Assembly: GCA_001786835.1 (NCBI GenBank)
Contig: MFTO01000005.1
Coordinates: forward strand, 1 to 60,733
Source: Candidatus Nomurabacteria bacterium RIFCSPHIGHO2_01_FULL_40_20
GTDB lineage: Bacteria; Patescibacteriota; Minisyncoccia; Phycocordibacterales; UBA9973
Direction: 5' to 3'
DNA length: 60,733 nucleotides
In this document: positions 887 through 46,261 of the stretch, one piece after another
Numbering within the stretch: the first letter of the stretch is position 1
How the letters are laid out: each line of letters opens with the position of its first letter
The notes under the pieces: model-generated
Seen by the model: only the letters and a program-made list of their open reading frames with translations
Told to the model about the DNA's origin: nothing
Databases searched by the model: none
Program-made: the position numbers and the translations under genes

Positions 887-2194
887 ATGCAAATACAGAA
901 TCTAAAAAAAATTAAGATTCCAGATAAGCCGGGGGTTTATATTTTCAAACACAAAAGGGAGATACTCTATATCGGCAAGGCGACTTCACTTAAGAACCGA
1001 GTGCGGAGTTATTTTGGGAAAGATTTGATTGCAACGAGGGGGCCACTCATCTTAGATATGGTGACCAAAGCGAAAAGCATAAAATGGGAAGAGACGGATT
1101 CGGTGCTGGAAGCGTTAATGCTGGAAGCGAATCTCATCAAGAAGCACCAACCCTATTACAACACCAAAGAAAAAGATGATAAGAGCTTTTTATGTGTCGT
1201 AATTACAAAAGAAGCGATGCCTCAAGTTCTCACTATCCGCGCTCGCGAGCTAAAAGAACACCCTTACAAACTGGAGTTTGTAAGGGTGTTGAAAGTGTAT
1301 GGACCGTTTACGAATGGCAGGCAGTTACAGGAGGCAATGAAAATTATCCGCCGAATTTTTCCGTATCGTGATGATAAATCCAGCAAGCGGGACAATTATG
1401 AATTTTACAAGCAGTTGGGGCTTACACCGGACATAAATATTCCAAACGAGGAATATAAAAAAACTATCAGAAATATAAAACTTTTTTTTGAAGGCAAGAA
1501 AAAAAAAGTTCTCCAAAACTTAAAGAAGGAAATGAATGCGCTCGCCAAAGCGCACAAATTTGAAAAAGCGGGAGAAGTCAAAAGGCAAATTTTTGCTTTA
1601 CAACATATAAATGACGTTGCTTTAATTAAAGAAGACAACGCGAACCTGAATAATTTTCGCGCCTTCGCCCTCGGAGACAAAGGACAGGGGACCCACGACG
1701 CTTCAAATCATTCAGGTTCGCTTTTTAGAATTGAAGCGTATGATATTGCTCACATGAGTGGCAAAAATATGGTTGGAGTTATGACGGTGGTGGAAGCTGG
1801 CCTGCCTGCGCAGGCAGGCGAAATAGAAAAGAGTGAGTATAAAAAATTTAAGATTCGCACCCAAGCCGGCTCAAATGACACAGGAGCGCTTCGGGAAATT
1901 CTGGAACGCAGGTTTGCGCATAGTGAATGGACGTTTCCGAATTTGATAGTAGTAGACGGTAGCACGGCGCAAATAAATACAGCAAAAAAAGTTTTGGGTA
2001 AAATGGGTCTCCATATTCCCGTGGTTTCTGTGGTAAAAGATGAAAGGCATAGACCTACGGGTATAAAAGGGGATGCAGAACTGGGGAGGAAATATGAGCG
2101 GGAGATATTGCTTGCCAACAGCGAAGCGCATAGGTTTGCGGTAAGTTATCATAAGAAGATGCGAGGAAAGAATTTTTTAGGTTTACGTAAGTAA
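887..2194 (+). CDS. uvrC: Excinuclease ABC subunit C (UvrC), short form of 435 aa without a C-terminal (HhH)2 domain
   Basis: GIY-YIG N-terminus (PGVYIFKHKREILYIGKA...NRVRSYF), UVR motif (FEKAGEVKRQIFALQHI), endonuclease region ending SEAHRFAVSYHKK. Starts 4 nt after the uvrA stop. Confidence 0.9.
   Translation: MQIQNLKKIKIPDKPGVYIFKHKREILYIGKATSLKNRVRSYFGKDLIATRGPLILDMVTKAKSIKWEETDSVLEALMLEANLIKKHQPYYNTKEKDDKSFLCVVITKEAMPQVLTIRARELKEHPYKLEFVRVLKVYGPFTNGRQLQEAMKIIRRIFPYRDDKSSKRDNYEFYKQLGLTPDINIPNEEYKKTIRNIKLFFEGKKKKVLQNLKKEMNALAKAHKFEKAGEVKRQIFALQHINDVALIKEDNANLNNFRAFALGDKGQGTHDASNHSGSLFRIEAYDIAHMSGKNMVGVMTVVEAGLPAQAGEIEKSEYKKFKIRTQAGSNDTGALREILERRFAHSEWTFPNLIVVDGSTAQINTAKKVLGKMGLHIPVVSVVKDERHRPTGIKGDAELGRKYEREILLANSEAHRFAVSYHKKMRGKNFLGLRK
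1800..1819. repeat. Perfect 20-nt GC-rich palindrome GCCTGCCTGCGCAGGCAGGC inside uvrC, encoding LPAQAG
   Basis: Read directly; related copies at 6578-6595 and 40812-40829. Confidence 0.9.
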
Positions 2195-6078: not shown

Positions 6079-6660
6079 TTATTTACTTTTCCCTAAAATC
6101 TTTAGCGCTTCGCGGACTTTGGTGTTGGTGTCTGTGTCGGCAGGAATCTTTTTGAGCGCATCGCGAGCTTCATTTTGCGAGTAGCCGAGGGATTTGAGGG
6201 CTTCGAGCGCGTCTAATTCGCCTTGGAGTGAACCTTGTGTTTCCTCGCCGACTTTGTCGCGAAGTTCAAGCAGGATTTTCTCTGCAGTCTTTCGACCGAT
6301 GCCGGAGATTTTAGTGAGGTAGGCGAGGTCGCCCGAGCTTATTGCTTTTTTTAGGGTTTCAATTGTTGCCACACTCAAAATCACCAGCGCGCCTTTTGGT
6401 CCGATACCCGAGACTCCGATTAGCAACTCAAAAAATTCCAATTCTTCGTAATCTAGAAATCCATAAAGGTCCAAAATATCTTCGCGCACATGAGTATGAA
6501 TAAAAAGCATAGTTTCGCCACCCTCTTTTATTTTAGAAAGAGAGTCTGGCGGGACGCTTATTTTATAGCCCACCCCACCTGCCTGCGCAGGCAGGCCAGT
6601 CTCCACAATCACAAACTTTTCTGTTTTCTTGATGACTTTACCTTTTATACTGCCAATCAT
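6079..6660 (-). CDS. ruvA: Holliday junction DNA helicase subunit RuvA
   Basis: MIGSIKGKV...GVGYKISVP, HhH motifs (GVSGIGPKGAL, ISGIGRKTAEKI), domain III. Confidence 0.92.
   Translation of the reverse strand: MIGSIKGKVIKKTEKFVIVETGLPAQAGGVGYKISVPPDSLSKIKEGGETMLFIHTHVREDILDLYGFLDYEELEFFELLIGVSGIGPKGALVILSVATIETLKKAISSGDLAYLTKISGIGRKTAEKILLELRDKVGEETQGSLQGELDALEALKSLGYSQNEARDALKKIPADTDTNTKVREALKILGKSK
6578..6595. repeat. 18-nt palindrome CCTGCCTGCGCAGGCAGG inside ruvA, encoding LPAQAG
   Basis: Read directly; lies just before the codons of the conserved GVGY motif. Confidence 0.9.
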
Positions 6661-19921: not shown

Positions 19922-21163
19922 ATGTATTCCAAAAAATTAAAAGAAAATATCGAAAAAGAGCTAGAAAACCTTAAGCTACAAGGGAAGTTTAAGGTGGAAC
20001 GAGAACTTGAGGGAGCGCAGGGTCCGGAGGTGGAGATTGGAGGCAAGAGAGTTTTAATGTTTGCTTCCAATAATTACTTAGGACTAGCAAATCATCCGGA
20101 AATTGTTAAGAGCGCCAGAGAAGCGATAGATAAGTATGGCTTTGGGCTTTCATCTGTGCGCTTTATTTCCGGAACAGAGACTATTCACAAACAACTTGAA
20201 AAAAAGCTGGCAAAATTTCTAGGAGTGGAAGATGCGATTCTATATTCCACAAATTTTATGTCTAACCTAGGATTTTTTGCCAGCATCACCAATGAAGCTT
20301 TTGGAGGAGATGGAAGCCATATGGATGCTATTTATAGCGATGAACTCAATCACGCTAGTATTATTGACGCATTTAAACTTTGTAAAAAAGAAAACATACA
20401 AAAAAGAATTTATCCGCATGGAGATGTTTCGGCGCTTGAGAAAATGTTGGAAGAAGATAGGCTAAATCCGCCAGCTGGCGGATATCGCTTCAAAATAATC
20501 GTAACTGACGGAGTTTTTTCCATGGAAGGGTATTTGGCGGACTTGCCTAAGTTAAAAGAACTTTCGGAAAAATATGAAGCCCTGCTTTTTGTGGATGACG
20601 CGCATGCGGTTGGGGTTTTGGGTAAAACCGGAGCAGGCACACCGGAGCATTTTGGATTTCAAGGCAAGATTGATATTTTATCTGGCACTTTTGGCAAAGC
20701 GCTTGGTGGAGCAGTGGGCGGATATGTCGCGGGGCGCGCCGACATCATAGAGCTTCTTCGTCAAAAGTCTCGCACTTATCTTTTTTCAAATTCTGTGCCC
20801 CCCTCTGTGGTCATGGCCTCCATGAGAGCCCTTGAATTACTAGAAGAAAAACCGGAACTTCTTAAAAAAGTGCGCGAGAACAGCGATTACTTTAGGAAAG
20901 AAGTTAAAAAAATGGGATTTGATGTTTTAGAAGGGGAGCATCCGATAGTTCCAGTAATGCTCGGCGACGCGAGTCTTACTCAGGAATTTAGCAAGAAACT
21001 TTTAGAGCGGGGACTTTTTGTGGTGGGACTTTGGTTTCCCGTGGTGCCTGAAGGCACGGCTCGACTTCGTTTTCAAATATCTTCAGCTCACACCAAAGAC
21101 CAGATTGACCGCGCCCTCTCTATACTTTTGGAAGTAGGTAAAGAAATGGCTATTTTAAAGTAA
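19922..21163 (+). CDS. kbl: 2-amino-3-ketobutyrate CoA ligase (glycine C-acetyltransferase)
   Basis: PLP-dependent alpha-oxoamine synthase motifs (DGVFSMEG, DDAHAVG, SGTFGKALGG). Confidence 0.9.
   Translation: MYSKKLKENIEKELENLKLQGKFKVERELEGAQGPEVEIGGKRVLMFASNNYLGLANHPEIVKSAREAIDKYGFGLSSVRFISGTETIHKQLEKKLAKFLGVEDAILYSTNFMSNLGFFASITNEAFGGDGSHMDAIYSDELNHASIIDAFKLCKKENIQKRIYPHGDVSALEKMLEEDRLNPPAGGYRFKIIVTDGVFSMEGYLADLPKLKELSEKYEALLFVDDAHAVGVLGKTGAGTPEHFGFQGKIDILSGTFGKALGGAVGGYVAGRADIIELLRQKSRTYLFSNSVPPSVVMASMRALELLEEKPELLKKVRENSDYFRKEVKKMGFDVLEGEHPIVPVMLGDASLTQEFSKKLLERGLFVVGLWFPVVPEGTARLRFQISSAHTKDQIDRALSILLEVGKEMAILK
20467..20482. repeat. 16-nt perfect palindrome TCCGCCAGCTGGCGGA inside kbl, encoding (N)PPAGG
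   Basis: Read directly; identical 18-mer AATCCGCCAGCTGGCGGA at 43198-43215. Confidence 0.9.
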
Positions 21164-40188: not shown

Positions 40189-42354
40189 ATGGAACGAGAT
40201 TACCCATTAGAGAAAGTTAGAAATTTTGGAATTATCGCTCACATTGATGCGGGCAAGACTACCACGACCGAGCGCGTGCTTTTTTATACTGGTGTTTCTC
40301 ACAAAATAGGCGAGGTGCATGATGGCGAAACCACGACCGACTGGATGGAGCAAGAGCGCGAGCGGGGGATTACTATCACTTCTGCGGCAGTTACTTGTTT
40401 CTGGACGCCTACTTATGATTTGACCAACAAGGCACTCAAGCATCGTTTTAATATTATTGATACCCCAGGGCACATTGATTTTACAGTGGAAGTAAAACGC
40501 TCACTCCGTGTGCTCGACGGCGCGGTGGTGGTGTTTGACGGCGTGGCCGGAGTAGAACCGCAATCAGAAACCAACTGGCGCTATGCGGATGAAGCGAGTG
40601 TGCCGAGAATATGTTTTATCAACAAGCTCGACCGCACTGGCGCATCTTTTGAACATTCCTACAAAACTATTTTAGAGCGTCTTTCCAAAAAAGCAGTCCG
40701 GGTGCAAATACCTATCGGGCTTGAAGAGCATTTTGAAGGAGTAGTGGACCTACTTCGGATGAAGGCGTACTATTTTGAAGGGGATATGGGGAATCTTGTG
40801 ATAGAGAAAGACCTGACTGCGCAGGCAGGAATTCCTGAAAATATAATAAAAGACGCGGAAAAATATCACAACGAATTAATTGAAAAAATTGTGGAACAAG
40901 ATGATACGTTGATGACCGAATACTTGGATGGTAAAATTCCTGATTTTGATACTTTAAAGAAATTATTGCGCAAGGGAGTGATAACCAATGAAATTTTTCC
41001 GGTCTTTGCGGGCTCGGCGCTAAAAAATAAAGGAGTCCAGCTTGTGCTCGACGCTGTGGTGGACTATTTACCGGCGCCGACCGATATTCCTCCGATTACT
41101 GGCATTGACCCAAATACTGATGCTCCGGTGGTGCGCCATGCGTCAGACACGGAGCCATTTTCCGCGCTTGCTTTCAAGGTAGCGACCGACCCATTCGTGG
41201 GTCAACTAATTTTCTTTCGAGTTTATTCCGGAACACTGGAAGCCGGAAGCTATGTTTATAATCCTCGCACAAGAAGCAAAGAGAGAATCGGGCGAATACT
41301 TCGTATGCATGCCAACGACCGCGAAGAAGTGAAAAAAGTTTTCGCCGGAGAAATTGCCGCAGCCGTGGGACTCAAAGAAACTATTACTTCCGACACTCTT
41401 TGTGATGAAGCGCATGAGGTAGAGTTAGACCGAATAGTTTTCCCGGAACCGGTCATCTCGTTACGTATTGAACCAAAGACAAAAGCCGACCAAGAGAAAA
41501 TGGGTATGGCGCTCAACCGTCTTGCCCAAGAAGACCCTACCTTTAAAGTCTCAACCGACCAAGAAACAGGCGAGACTATTATTGCCGGCATGGGAGAGCT
41601 TCACTTGGAAATTATTGTAGACCGTATGAAGAGAGAATTCACGGTGGAAGCAAACGTAGGCAAACCGCAAGTGGCGTACCGAGAAACCATTACAGGGTCT
41701 GCGGATGCCGAAGGCAAATATATCAAACAGTCCGGCGGACGTGGAAACTACGGGCACGTGAAGATAAAAGTAAAACCAATGACAATTTTGACTAAAGAAG
41801 AAATAGAAGACTTGCCGAAGAATACCAAACGCTCTCTAGGTTTTGAGTTCATTAACAACATCAAAGGAGGTGTCATTCCACAAGAATACATCGCTCCTTG
41901 TGAAAAAGGATTCAAGGAAGGACTGGACCGCGGAATTTTGGCTGGATTCAAAATGGTAAATGTATCTGTTGACCTATGGGACGGAAGTTATCACGAAGTG
42001 GACTCAAATGAAATGGCATTCAAGATTGCAGCTTCTATGGCGGTGCAAGATGCATGTCGAAATGCAAAACCCGTGATACTTGAGCCGATGATGAAAGTGG
42101 AAGTAGTGACACCGGACAAATTTATGGGAGACGTAACTGGAAACCTTTCATCTAAGCGCGGACTTATTGACGGCATGGAAGAGCGGGGAATGAATAAAGT
42201 AATCAAAGCTATTGTTCCGCTATCAGAAATGTTTGGCTACATGACTGGACTGCGCTCTATGACCGAAGGTCGTGCGTCTTTCACTATGGAATTCTTGCGC
42301 TACGATATAGTACCCCAGAATGTTGCGGAGACGATAATATCGGCGCGAAAGTAA
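40189..42354 (+). CDS. fusA: Elongation factor G
   Basis: [34 protein letters not shown]; 721 aa. Confidence 0.98.
40812..40829. repeat. Near-palindrome CCTGACTGCGCAGGCAGG inside fusA, encoding LTAQAG
   Basis: One mismatch relative to the copies in uvrC and ruvA. Confidence 0.85.
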
Positions 42355-42477: not shown

Positions 42478-43506
42478 ATGTCGCTTATTAAACTCCCAGG
42501 GCTTATTGATGTGCATGTGCACTTGCGCGAGCCGGGGGCTACTCATAAAGAAGATTTTTATACGGGCAGTCGCGCGGCGCTTGCCGGGGGGTTTACTTAT
42601 ATTTTGGATATGCCGAACAACCTTATTCCTACCATAACAGCCGAGCTTTTGGAAGAAAAAATTTCTCTTTCAAAAGAAAAATCTGTCTGCGATATTGGAT
42701 TTCATTTTGGCACTAACGGAGAAAATACAGAAGAGTTTGAAAAAGTAAAAAACAATCCAAAAGTTTTTGGCTTGAAAATTTATTGCAATCACACTACCGG
42801 CGAGATGCTGATTGAGAATTTAGAATTGCTTGAAAAAGTTTTCTCCGCTTGGGATTCACCCAAGCCAATTTTGGTACATGCTGAAGGAGAACAGTTGGTA
42901 ACTACTCTCGCTCTCGCTCTTAAATATGAAAGAGTGCTTCATGTGTGTCACATTTCACAGAAGAGCGAAGTAGAACTAATTAGAAAAGCAAAAGCAAGTT
43001 CTCAAAAAGTTTCAGCCGGAGTTTGCCCACACCATTTATATTTTACCAAAGATGCAGTTTCAAAAATGAAAGGTTATGCCATGATGAAACCCCCCCTAGG
43101 TACTCAGGAAGACCAAGATGCGCTTTGGGCAGGACTTTCTGATGGAACAATTGATCTTATTGAATCCGACCATGCTCCGCATGTAAAACTTGAAAAGAAT
43201 CCGCCAGCTGGCGGACAGCCAGCGTTTGGTGTGCCGGGTCTTGAAACTACTTTAGGACTTATGTTCAAAGCAGTTCACGACGGGCGAATTAGCAAAGAAG
43301 ATGTGGTAAGACTTTTATACACTAATCCGAAAAAGATTTTCAACATTCCCGACCAACCGGACACTTATATAGAATTAGATCCTGATTTAGCTTATGTTGT
43401 TCCACAAAAAGGTTTTGAGACGAAATGTGATTGGTCGCCATTTTCGGGGATGACGCTTTATGGTAAAGTGCAAGCAGTGGTATTGCGAGGCAAAAAAGTT
43501 TTATGA
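42478..43506 (+). CDS. pyrC: Dihydroorotase (short form)
   Basis: GLIDVHVHLREPG, ESDHAPH; followed by pyrD/E/F. Confidence 0.85.
   Translation: MSLIKLPGLIDVHVHLREPGATHKEDFYTGSRAALAGGFTYILDMPNNLIPTITAELLEEKISLSKEKSVCDIGFHFGTNGENTEEFEKVKNNPKVFGLKIYCNHTTGEMLIENLELLEKVFSAWDSPKPILVHAEGEQLVTTLALALKYERVLHVCHISQKSEVELIRKAKASSQKVSAGVCPHHLYFTKDAVSKMKGYAMMKPPLGTQEDQDALWAGLSDGTIDLIESDHAPHVKLEKNPPAGGQPAFGVPGLETTLGLMFKAVHDGRISKEDVVRLLYTNPKKIFNIPDQPDTYIELDPDLAYVVPQKGFETKCDWSPFSGMTLYGKVQAVVLRGKKVL
43200..43215. repeat. 16-nt perfect palindrome TCCGCCAGCTGGCGGA inside pyrC, encoding (N)PPAGG
   Basis: Identical to 20467-20482. Confidence 0.9.
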
Positions 43507-46178: not shown

Positions 46179-46239
46179 CTAATCAATTAGTATTTAGGCC
46201 TTAGCAACTGGTTCTCGTATGCTGGGTCTTAGATAGTAA

Positions 46240-46255
46240 TCCGCCAACTGGCGGA
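46240..46255. repeat. Intergenic copy (one mismatch) of the CCGCCAGCTGGCGG palindrome: TCCGCCAACTGGCGGA
   Basis: Ends 6 nt before the tuf ATG. Confidence 0.8.
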
Positions 46256-46261
46256 AAAAAT

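Follow-up and report, generated by a model that had tools for sequence, protein, structure and literature searches.

The window analysed here, a 60,733-nucleotide stretch of DNA from Candidatus Nomurabacteria bacterium RIFCSPHIGHO2_01_FULL_40_20, is contig C5 of a 550-kb genome that is assembled in 21 contigs and is 78% complete; homologues of its proteins carry the source names Nomurabacteria, Paceibacterota or Patescibacteria. Three copies of a GC-rich 18-bp palindrome, hereafter the 18-mer, lie inside the coding sequences of uvrC, ruvA and fusA. The genes and the copies that they carry are the following.

887-2194, plus strand: uvrC, in a short 435-amino-acid form, with homologues that carry the Pfam domains GIY-YIG, UVR and UvrC_RNaseH_dom
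1801-1818, in uvrC: perfect 18-bp palindrome CCTGCCTGCGCAGGCAGG, exact copy, extended by its flanks to a 20-nt palindrome at 1800-1819
6079-6660, minus strand: ruvA, host of the second copy
6578-6595, in the minus-strand gene ruvA: 18-bp palindrome CCTGCCTGCGCAGGCAGG, exact copy
40189-42354, plus strand: fusA, encoding EF-G (E = 4e-263 to E. coli EF-G)
40812-40829, in fusA: CCTGACTGCGCAGGCAGG (beginning CCTGACTG), one mismatch to CCTGCCTGCGCAGGCAGG

The initial annotation had reported these copies as in-frame additions to three unrelated core genes, and its coordinates and residue contexts are correct throughout. All three are read in the same phase whatever the orientation of the gene, as (G/D)-L-P/T-A-Q-A-G: G-LPAQAG-E between VVEAG and EIEKSEYKKFKI in UvrC, T-G-LPAQAG-GVGY in RuvA and D-LTAQAG-I ahead of IPENI in EF-G. 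Orientation is irrelevant, because the element is palindromic. The contrast in composition is equally as described, with a G+C content of 72% for the 18-mer and about 40% for both window and genome. Not a single match, even with up to three mismatches, occurs in 100 dinucleotide-preserving shuffles. The genome holds 11 copies at up to two mismatches, ten of them in genes and one intergenic; the remaining host genes are fmt, gatC, typA/bipA, truB, the L25/Ctc gene (in its C-terminal tail), a P-type ATPase gene and ileS. Nine of the ten genic copies read (G/D)-L-(P/S/T)-A-Q-(A/T)-G, and the ileS copy uses another phase and reads PACADRP. That the hosts are unrelated core genes is true but not special: long open reading frames (ORFs) cover about 89% of the genome, so that a genic location is expected, and the noteworthy point is that copies inside genes are tolerated.

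Judged by orthologue alignments, the six residues in UvrC, RuvA and EF-G are insertions, lineage-specific as the initial annotation had supposed. UvrC shows an exact six-column gap (VVE-xG-E) in 20 relatives of the same genus or order and in seven further metagenome homologues, and only one protein, 96% identical, shares the insert. RuvA shows an exact six-residue gap in 17 relatives and in the M. tuberculosis protein (2h5x), and 20 of 21 EF-G relatives are without the six residues and read EK(D/E)-IPE. The gap appears against solved structures for both RuvA and EF-G, and distant orthologues such as M. tuberculosis RuvA and E. coli EF-G do not share the residues; Fmt gave no match to solved structures at the threshold set. 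The nucleotide sequences agree with the protein alignments. Removal of the 18-mer leaves GAA GCT GGC GAA in uvrC and GAG ACT GGT GGG in ruvA, where the closest relative (76% identical) has GAG ACG GGC GGA GTC and the window has GAG ACT GG[18-mer]T GGG GTG. The fusA sequence GAG AAA GA[18-mer]A ATT becomes GAA ATT (E-I), the same as in the relatives. The insert splits a codon after its second base, turning GGN into GGC...GGN and GAN into GAC...GGN. At all three genes the filled site is exactly 18 bp longer than the empty one and its flanks have no consistent repeat, and therefore there is no target-site duplication.

The nearest metagenome uvrC (L404, the gene of the 96%-identical protein) is 100% identical to window positions 887-2194 over the 3' 900 nt and about 82% identical over the 5' 400 nt, and its upstream gene, which is PaaX_M-like, differs from that of the window. 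The alignment indicates either that uvrC underwent recombination recently, with a breakpoint inside the gene, or that the contig is chimeric. With this pattern of identity, L404 is uninformative on the age of the insert.

The three positions had also been proposed to be loops, and what can be said of the protein structures is consistent with this but is weak evidence. In the present alignment the RuvA insert falls in what we take to be a turn ahead of the conserved GVGY strand in domain I. The EF-G insert is an alignment gap relative to E. coli EF-G around residues 203-206. In an AlphaFold model of UvrC of low confidence (mean predicted local distance difference test score, pLDDT, 57.7), strands 294-304 and 313-324 are joined by a turn, residues 305-313, where pLDDT is below 50.

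The frame and the target of the insertions are both far from random. Copies in a clearly dominant ORF were pooled from the window's genome, 19 relatives and 80 stretches of species genomes (n = 72); 57 are read in the LPAQAG phase, 14 as PACAGR and one as CLRRQ (binomial p = 2e-15 against one third). GG or GA stands directly 5' of 42 of the 57 LPAQAG-phase copies, as against 19% of codons that begin this way in the window's genome (p = 5e-19). Our own count finds G-R on one strand also at nine of 14 intergenic or other-phase copies, and the dinucleotide therefore looks like a feature of the insertion process and not of protein-level selection alone. The phase bias is most simply explained by selection against the frames that add Cys or Arg-Arg; in all, the best reading of it is that selection acts among the three possible frames and that G-R targets are genuinely preferred. 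All copies use identical GC-rich codons in spite of the AT-rich genome, so what is conserved is DNA and not a peptide. The 18 bp enter as an exact unit, without target-site duplication and preferentially right after G-G or G-A.

The 18-mer is widespread and patchy. Among 61 genomes of the same genus or order it is present in 19 (at most one mismatch) with one to four copies each; the window's genome has the highest number in this comparison, nine, and most relatives have none or one. The reversed sequence gives no match in the 61 relatives or in the phylum sample. In a phylum-wide sample of 401 genomes, ten, which belong to unrelated families, have exact copies. One of the sampled genomes, G099, has 15 exact copies, or 20 copies when one mismatch is allowed, and its exact copies have no phase preference, several of them lying in short ORFs inside longer hairpins. 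At least 120 stretches of species-representative genomes carry the 18-mer; the matches listed are mostly from lineages of the candidate phyla radiation (CPR) of many classes (WWE3, Microgenomates, Saccharibacteria, Paceibacteria and others) and include Bacteroidota, Gammaproteobacteria and Terriglobia, and a few high-GC matches may be due to chance. An identical sequence with so patchy a distribution implies horizontal spread. In G010, G021 and one other Paceibacterota genome, one gene has the 18-mer at an identical site. Viral contigs were considered as vectors and rejected: the 25 viral stretches found are mostly high in GC with ambiguous frames, and only one clean low-GC in-frame site, on two contigs, is among them. 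In a distant member of the Patescibacteria (L084, G293:C104:1338-1931), three exact 18-mers within 600 bp bracket a 102-amino-acid MGMT-like (PCHRV) gene.

The probable origin of the 18-mer is suggested by a family of much longer inserts with the same ends. A metagenome scan with the pattern CCTGCCTGC-N250-280-GCAGGCAGG, whose 9-nt inverted ends are the two halves of the 18-mer, returned 120 stretches; in a collection of this size several hundred end pairs are estimated to be possible by chance. Fifteen of the 120 measure 282-297 bp, a multiple of three in each case, contain no stop codon and encode a conserved protein of about 90 residues, LPAPRPGxFFVYAxxCxDxSxYIGQTxDLxxRWxEH...GRKWLKRExxxGRARQA, which matches the Pfam GIY-YIG nuclease family with E = 5e-14. 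The nuclease ORF has neither start nor stop codon, and all 15 cassettes lie within a long host ORF that runs on at both sides. Their flanks follow the same grammar as those of the 18-mer, with GA or GG on the 5' side in 12 of 15 and GG-N on the 3' side in 15 of 15. A protein search restricted to the cassette yields 252 clusters of 365-1160 amino acids with the cassette in frame, and all 12 clusters inspected are bounded by [D/G/N]-LPAP...RQAG. The hosts are mostly S, R and M subunits of type I restriction-modification systems and DNA methylases, together with CPR housekeeping proteins (ArgRS, LeuRS, an AlaRS-like protein, RNase R, trigger factor, UvrB, Mur ligase, DnaG, the CCA-adding enzyme and Elp3). 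When two mismatches are allowed, cassettes are found in two of 401 genomes of the window's order, where the hosts are ArgRS (...EKSD[LPAPRP...GRTRQA]GHAIIF) and an Elp3-like gene. Two type I restriction-modification proteins, P0121 and P0125, hold two full cassettes each, and P0125 also holds the short palindrome-derived peptides DLPARGAQAGG and PPARGARAGPPARLRAG, which suggests repeated invasion of defence genes by the cassette and related elements.

An intermediate form links the two size classes. One hsdM gene with a full cassette also holds a 30-nt form, CCTGCCTGCGCCGGGGCTACGGCAGGCAGG (read D-LPAPGLRQAG), which keeps cassette-specific bases just inside both ends. Cassette, 30-nt intermediate and 18-mer share termini, flanks and frame ([G/D]-LPA...QAG), as the sequences show; the 18-mer has the L-P-A...Q-A-G of the cassette ends after a G, D or N codon. 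The forms of 282-297, 30, 20 and 18 bp appear to make a deletion series. A 20-nt sister palindrome, CCTGCCTGCCGGCAGGCAGG, is common in the phylum and surfaced as pairs of separate palindromes in a scan for cassettes with exact ends. The 18-mer has no internal sequence, and hence none of the internal ORF for a GIY-YIG nuclease, so that it is at most a derivative and not an autonomous member of the cassette family.

Small free-standing genes for the same kind of nuclease are also present in the window's genome. They are two in number.

C9:554-811: free-standing GIY-YIG gene, profile E-value 8e-18
C13:58899-59150: free-standing GIY-YIG gene, profile E-value 2e-15

Their products have 83-85 amino acids. 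The C13 gene lies 0.5 kb from the truB copy of the 18-mer, and it also overlaps the 5' end of a tRNA-Ser. The link of these genes to the 18-mer is only suggestive. In five CPR lineages (L061, G015:C4:53133-54350; L159, Nomurabacteria; L170; L169; L174) a 5' fragment of tRNA-Gln is duplicated and is interrupted by the 18-mer at an identical position, the order being GGGAGATCG, 18-mer, TCTAAYGGTAG, with ..ATCG directly before the 18-mer. In G015, L159 and L170 a free-standing GIY-YIG gene follows 19-160 nt from the 18-mer, and then an intact tRNA-Gln; the other two lineages show only the interrupted fragment. The tRNA-Gln fragment may be a homing site of the nuclease gene. Free-standing GIY-YIG genes of 80-130 amino acids, up to seven per genome, are common in the relatives and in the phylum sample; they often have a GC-rich hairpin on the 5' side and abut tRNA genes, and for a few there is an in-frame fusion with the gene downstream, such as that of a SpoU-type methyltransferase in G047.

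From these observations we consider it probable, with considerable room for error, that the 18-mer is a minimal non-autonomous insertion element which consists of nothing but the two 9-nt ends of the 282-297-bp in-frame GIY-YIG cassettes, is moved by a nuclease acting in trans and is kept mainly in one phase by selection. That it is a minimal, non-autonomous derivative of the cassette is the most likely relationship between the two sequences. Internal deletion would have reduced cassettes to the 18-mer, much as a MITE (a miniature transposable element with inverted repeats) arises from its parent, and the 18-mer would now spread on its own. The enzyme that catalyses movement would be a GIY-YIG nuclease, either cassette-borne or one of the two free-standing homologues. 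Pairing of the inverted ends would give the stem of a hairpin or cruciform, its loop being 0 or about 264 nt long, and the nuclease may recognise this stem and cut at its feet. Insertion could occur in any phase, and selection would then retain for the most part those copies that are read harmlessly as L-P-A-Q-A-G and lie in surface loops or turns, which is how copies would come to persist in essential genes such as uvrC, ruvA and fusA. The host proteins most likely carry the six extra residues as neutral passengers. Since non-sister lineages have copies at identical sites, homing or allele-to-allele conversion is suggested to contribute as well.

Several findings weigh against this explanation. 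The window's genome, at 78% completeness, has no full cassette, and the half-site pairs of this genome and of about 250 loci include none. The exact-end scan of 401 genomes across the phylum found no cassette, and within the order no more than two of 401 genomes have one. The 115 kb around the 15 cassettes contain no 18-mer. The identity of the 9-nt ends was set by the search pattern and is thus partly by construction; independent support for the link comes from the conserved ORF, the 30-nt intermediate and the flank and frame that the forms have in common. The free-standing nucleases are only 33-38% identical to those of the cassettes, and small GIY-YIG genes, present in 52 of 61 relatives, do not track the presence of the 18-mer. 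In truB the copy adds four residues and not six relative to 15 relatives, which would require either an accompanying 6-bp loss or a partial overwrite. G008 has a copy at precisely the EF-G position, heavily decayed (AAC TTA TCC GCC GAG ACG GG, read NLSAETG) while its closest EF-G relatives are empty, and the L25 tail copy recurs in G059, a genome of another family; such same-site copies in non-sister species may reflect homing or conversion and not transposition.

Homing in a stricter sense would do without transposition altogether: the 18-mer would pass from allele to allele by homing or gene conversion after a nuclease cut in a naive allele, preferably between G-R and the following N, and repair from an allele in which the palindrome already occupies the site; horizontal DNA exchange between related CPR cells would take it from species to species, and illegitimate repair would bring it to new sites on rare occasions only. 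The proposal is in keeping with GIY-YIG enzymes as classic homing endonucleases, and uvrC itself has what may be a recombination breakpoint relative to its nearest metagenome relative. Exact recurrence at the same site in non-sister lineages is found in EF-G (G000, G008), in the L25 tail (two families), in the gene common to G010, G021 and another Paceibacterota genome and in the tRNA-Gln fragment of five lineages. Eleven sites in one small genome and hundreds of host genes overall, however, require frequent moves to non-homologous sites, and none of the relatives examined has a counterpart of the uvrC or the ruvA copy; as the whole explanation, homing is unlikely. A hairpin like those of the repetitive extragenic palindromes (REPs), moved by a Y1 (HUH) transposase of the IS200 or REP-associated tyrosine transposase (RAYT) type that cuts single-stranded DNA at the hairpin foot after a G-R guide and makes no target duplication, must also be considered. 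IS200/IS605-type chemistry would fit an insertion that leaves no duplication and lies beside a fixed dinucleotide. Y1_Tnp (PF01797) is found in 43 of 61 relatives, up to 11 per genome of 0.6-0.8 Mb, in G001-G060 as IS200/RAYT-like ORFs of 210-260 amino acids; in G009 a Y1 gene adjoins a pilD gene that bears the 18-mer. Intragenic REPs, often in repair genes, have a precedent (PMC3733652). The window's genome, though, has no Y1_Tnp match at 78% completeness in spite of the most copies of the 18-mer in the genus, and the Y1 and 18-mer counts of the 61 relatives are uncorrelated. Four Y1 loci of relatives have no flanking palindrome that matches or resembles the 18-mer, no GTAG or CGTC tag accompanies the copies, and a Y1 enzyme would leave unexplained why GIY-YIG cassettes have ends, flanks and frame in common with the 18-mer. 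Y1/RAYT transposases are rejected as movers on the grounds of absence, lack of correlation and flanks without matching palindromes, and we regard this mechanism as improbable.

A selected function of the palindrome, as the site of a DNA-binding protein, as a regulatory or pausing hairpin in mRNA or as an uptake or recognition signal, would account for a stable RNA hairpin (-11 kcal/mol) and for mismatches that concentrate at positions 5 and 14 instead of being evenly spread. It does not account for ten of 11 copies in unrelated genes without positional logic, for a presence that is patchy inside the genus itself (no copy or one in most relatives) or for the persistence of decayed copies such as that at the G008 EF-G site. 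No gene for a cognate binding protein is associated with the 18-mer, and its copy number is far below that of an uptake signal, so this explanation is very improbable. An artefact of assembly or sequencing, or a chance match, can be set aside as having a negligible probability. The genome is metagenome-assembled, which calls for general caution, and several copies lie near contig ends; a longer repeat behind this clustering was considered and rejected, the contig ends being ordinary graph overlaps. Numerous independent assemblies, produced by many projects, have the same sequence in frame; there are also variant and decayed copies, and the shuffled sequences give nothing.

Other palindromic and repeated inserts occur in the same genome. 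A 34-nt palindrome, AACACCCTTACAAACTGGAGTTTGTAAGGGTGTT, is found in the window at 1257-1290 (uvrC), at C13:58518-58551 (truB), at C17:3781-3814 and at C10:2638-2671; it is read (E/Q)HPYKLEFVRV(L/S) in uvrC and truB and in another frame (PQQTGVCK or PLQTGVCK) in the two other ORFs. The loops that bear it vary in length in relatives, some of which carry peptides that resemble it (KEHPNKLEFVGV in P0009). A further repeat, a GC-rich segment of 44 nt, GCGCCTTCGCCCTCGGAG..AGGACAGGGGACCCACGACGCT (read FALGDKGQGTHDA), is present in uvrC at 1659-1702 and in a 610-amino-acid ORF at C15:23830-23873. With the 18-mer, uvrC therefore holds three different repeated inserts. The initial annotation had separately pointed to an NPPAGG family of palindromes, AATCCGCCAGCTGGCGGAT, and this family is confirmed in the window at 20465-20483, 43198-43216 and 46238-46256 and in C18 at 14660, 15203 and 15692; kbl, pyrC and one more ORF contain members in frame, and a copy is also found just upstream of tuf. 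UvrC proteins of relatives have other short lineage-specific inserts, such as KPARAGGD and DPKGKQASYGAG in G010 (L015), which look like products of related GC-rich palindromes of the CCTGCCCGCGC.. type.

Among known systems the closest in behaviour are the Rickettsia palindromic elements (RPEs), reportedly described by Ogata et al. in 2000, to which the initial annotation had likened the far shorter 18-mer; the gaps in orthologues and the non-random frequency and phase support this likeness. Both are repeated palindromic DNA in frame in essential genes of a reduced genome, tolerated as an extra peptide, and both add lineage-specific residues to conserved genes. RPEs, however, are about 100-150 bp long, imperfect and limited to Rickettsia, whereas the 18-mer is a perfect palindrome of 18 bp, occurs phylum-wide and beyond and has a full-length relative that encodes a nuclease; we know of no enzyme that mobilises RPEs. 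REPs and REPINs resemble the 18-mer as short GC-rich hairpin repeats, some of them intragenic, notably in DNA-repair genes, that make no target duplication. The 18-mer differs in having no GTAG/CGTC tag, no bulges in its perfect palindrome and a mostly intragenic instead of predominantly extragenic location; it is flanked by G-G or G-A at one end and by variable sequence at the other, no cognate RAYT is present in the window's genome (78% complete), and no matching palindrome is present at the four Y1 loci inspected. Di Nocera et al. (2013, PMC3733652) describe intragenic REPs, some in DNA-repair genes, and discuss RPE-4 and related elements. The 18-mer is thus RPE-like in behaviour and a member of neither the RPE nor the REP family. 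With MITEs it has in common that it is non-autonomous and keeps the terminal inverted repeats of a longer coding element, here with ends imposed by the search pattern, in what reads as a deletion series (282-297, 30, 20 and 18 bp). It differs from them in having no internal sequence and no target-site duplication of fixed length, and its putative parent encodes a GIY-YIG nuclease without its own start or stop codon and not a DDE transposase. The full cassette, and only it, resembles homing endonuclease genes and inteins as a selfish nuclease gene in essential genes that keeps the frame and recurs at the same site across lineages, but it has inverted-repeat ends and no intron or splicing domain, its nuclease stays in the host protein, and the 18-mer itself encodes nothing. 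The GC clusters of yeast mitochondria are likewise short, mobile, GC-rich palindromes in an AT-rich genome, some of them in frame in a protein gene, VAR1; these are eukaryotic and organellar, 30-50 bp long and unrelated in sequence, and to our knowledge they have no parent nuclease cassette. Our literature search found no description of the LPAQAG peptide, of in-frame palindromes in CPR or of GIY-YIG elements with inverted repeats.

A more far-reaching proposal is advanced tentatively, as something we would sooner doubt than assert: the 18-mer may be the smallest mobile DNA unit defined by sequence, a "nano-MITE" of two abutted 9-nt ends that is currently active across the Patescibacteria and is moved, leaving neither duplication nor footprint, by a structure-specific GIY-YIG nuclease cutting at the hairpin foot, and its parent may represent a new class of prokaryotic mobile element, in which a nuclease gene that has inverted-repeat ends but lacks start and stop codons is expressed only within the host protein that it interrupts. 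The ~90-residue GIY-YIG nuclease and the 18-bp hairpin would be a candidate pair of enzyme and substrate, and may represent a new, duplication-free way of moving DNA. The 18-mer would account for many of the short lineage-specific inserts, LPAQAG and its variants, that trouble alignments, phylogenies and structure predictions of CPR proteins, and it could be used to trace recent exchange of genes among uncultured lineages. Full cassettes are strongly represented in restriction-modification genes, which suggests that the element and the evolution of defence systems are connected. If the explanation favoured here is true, selfish DNA persists even in the most streamlined of bacterial genomes, hidden in essential genes as six harmless residues.

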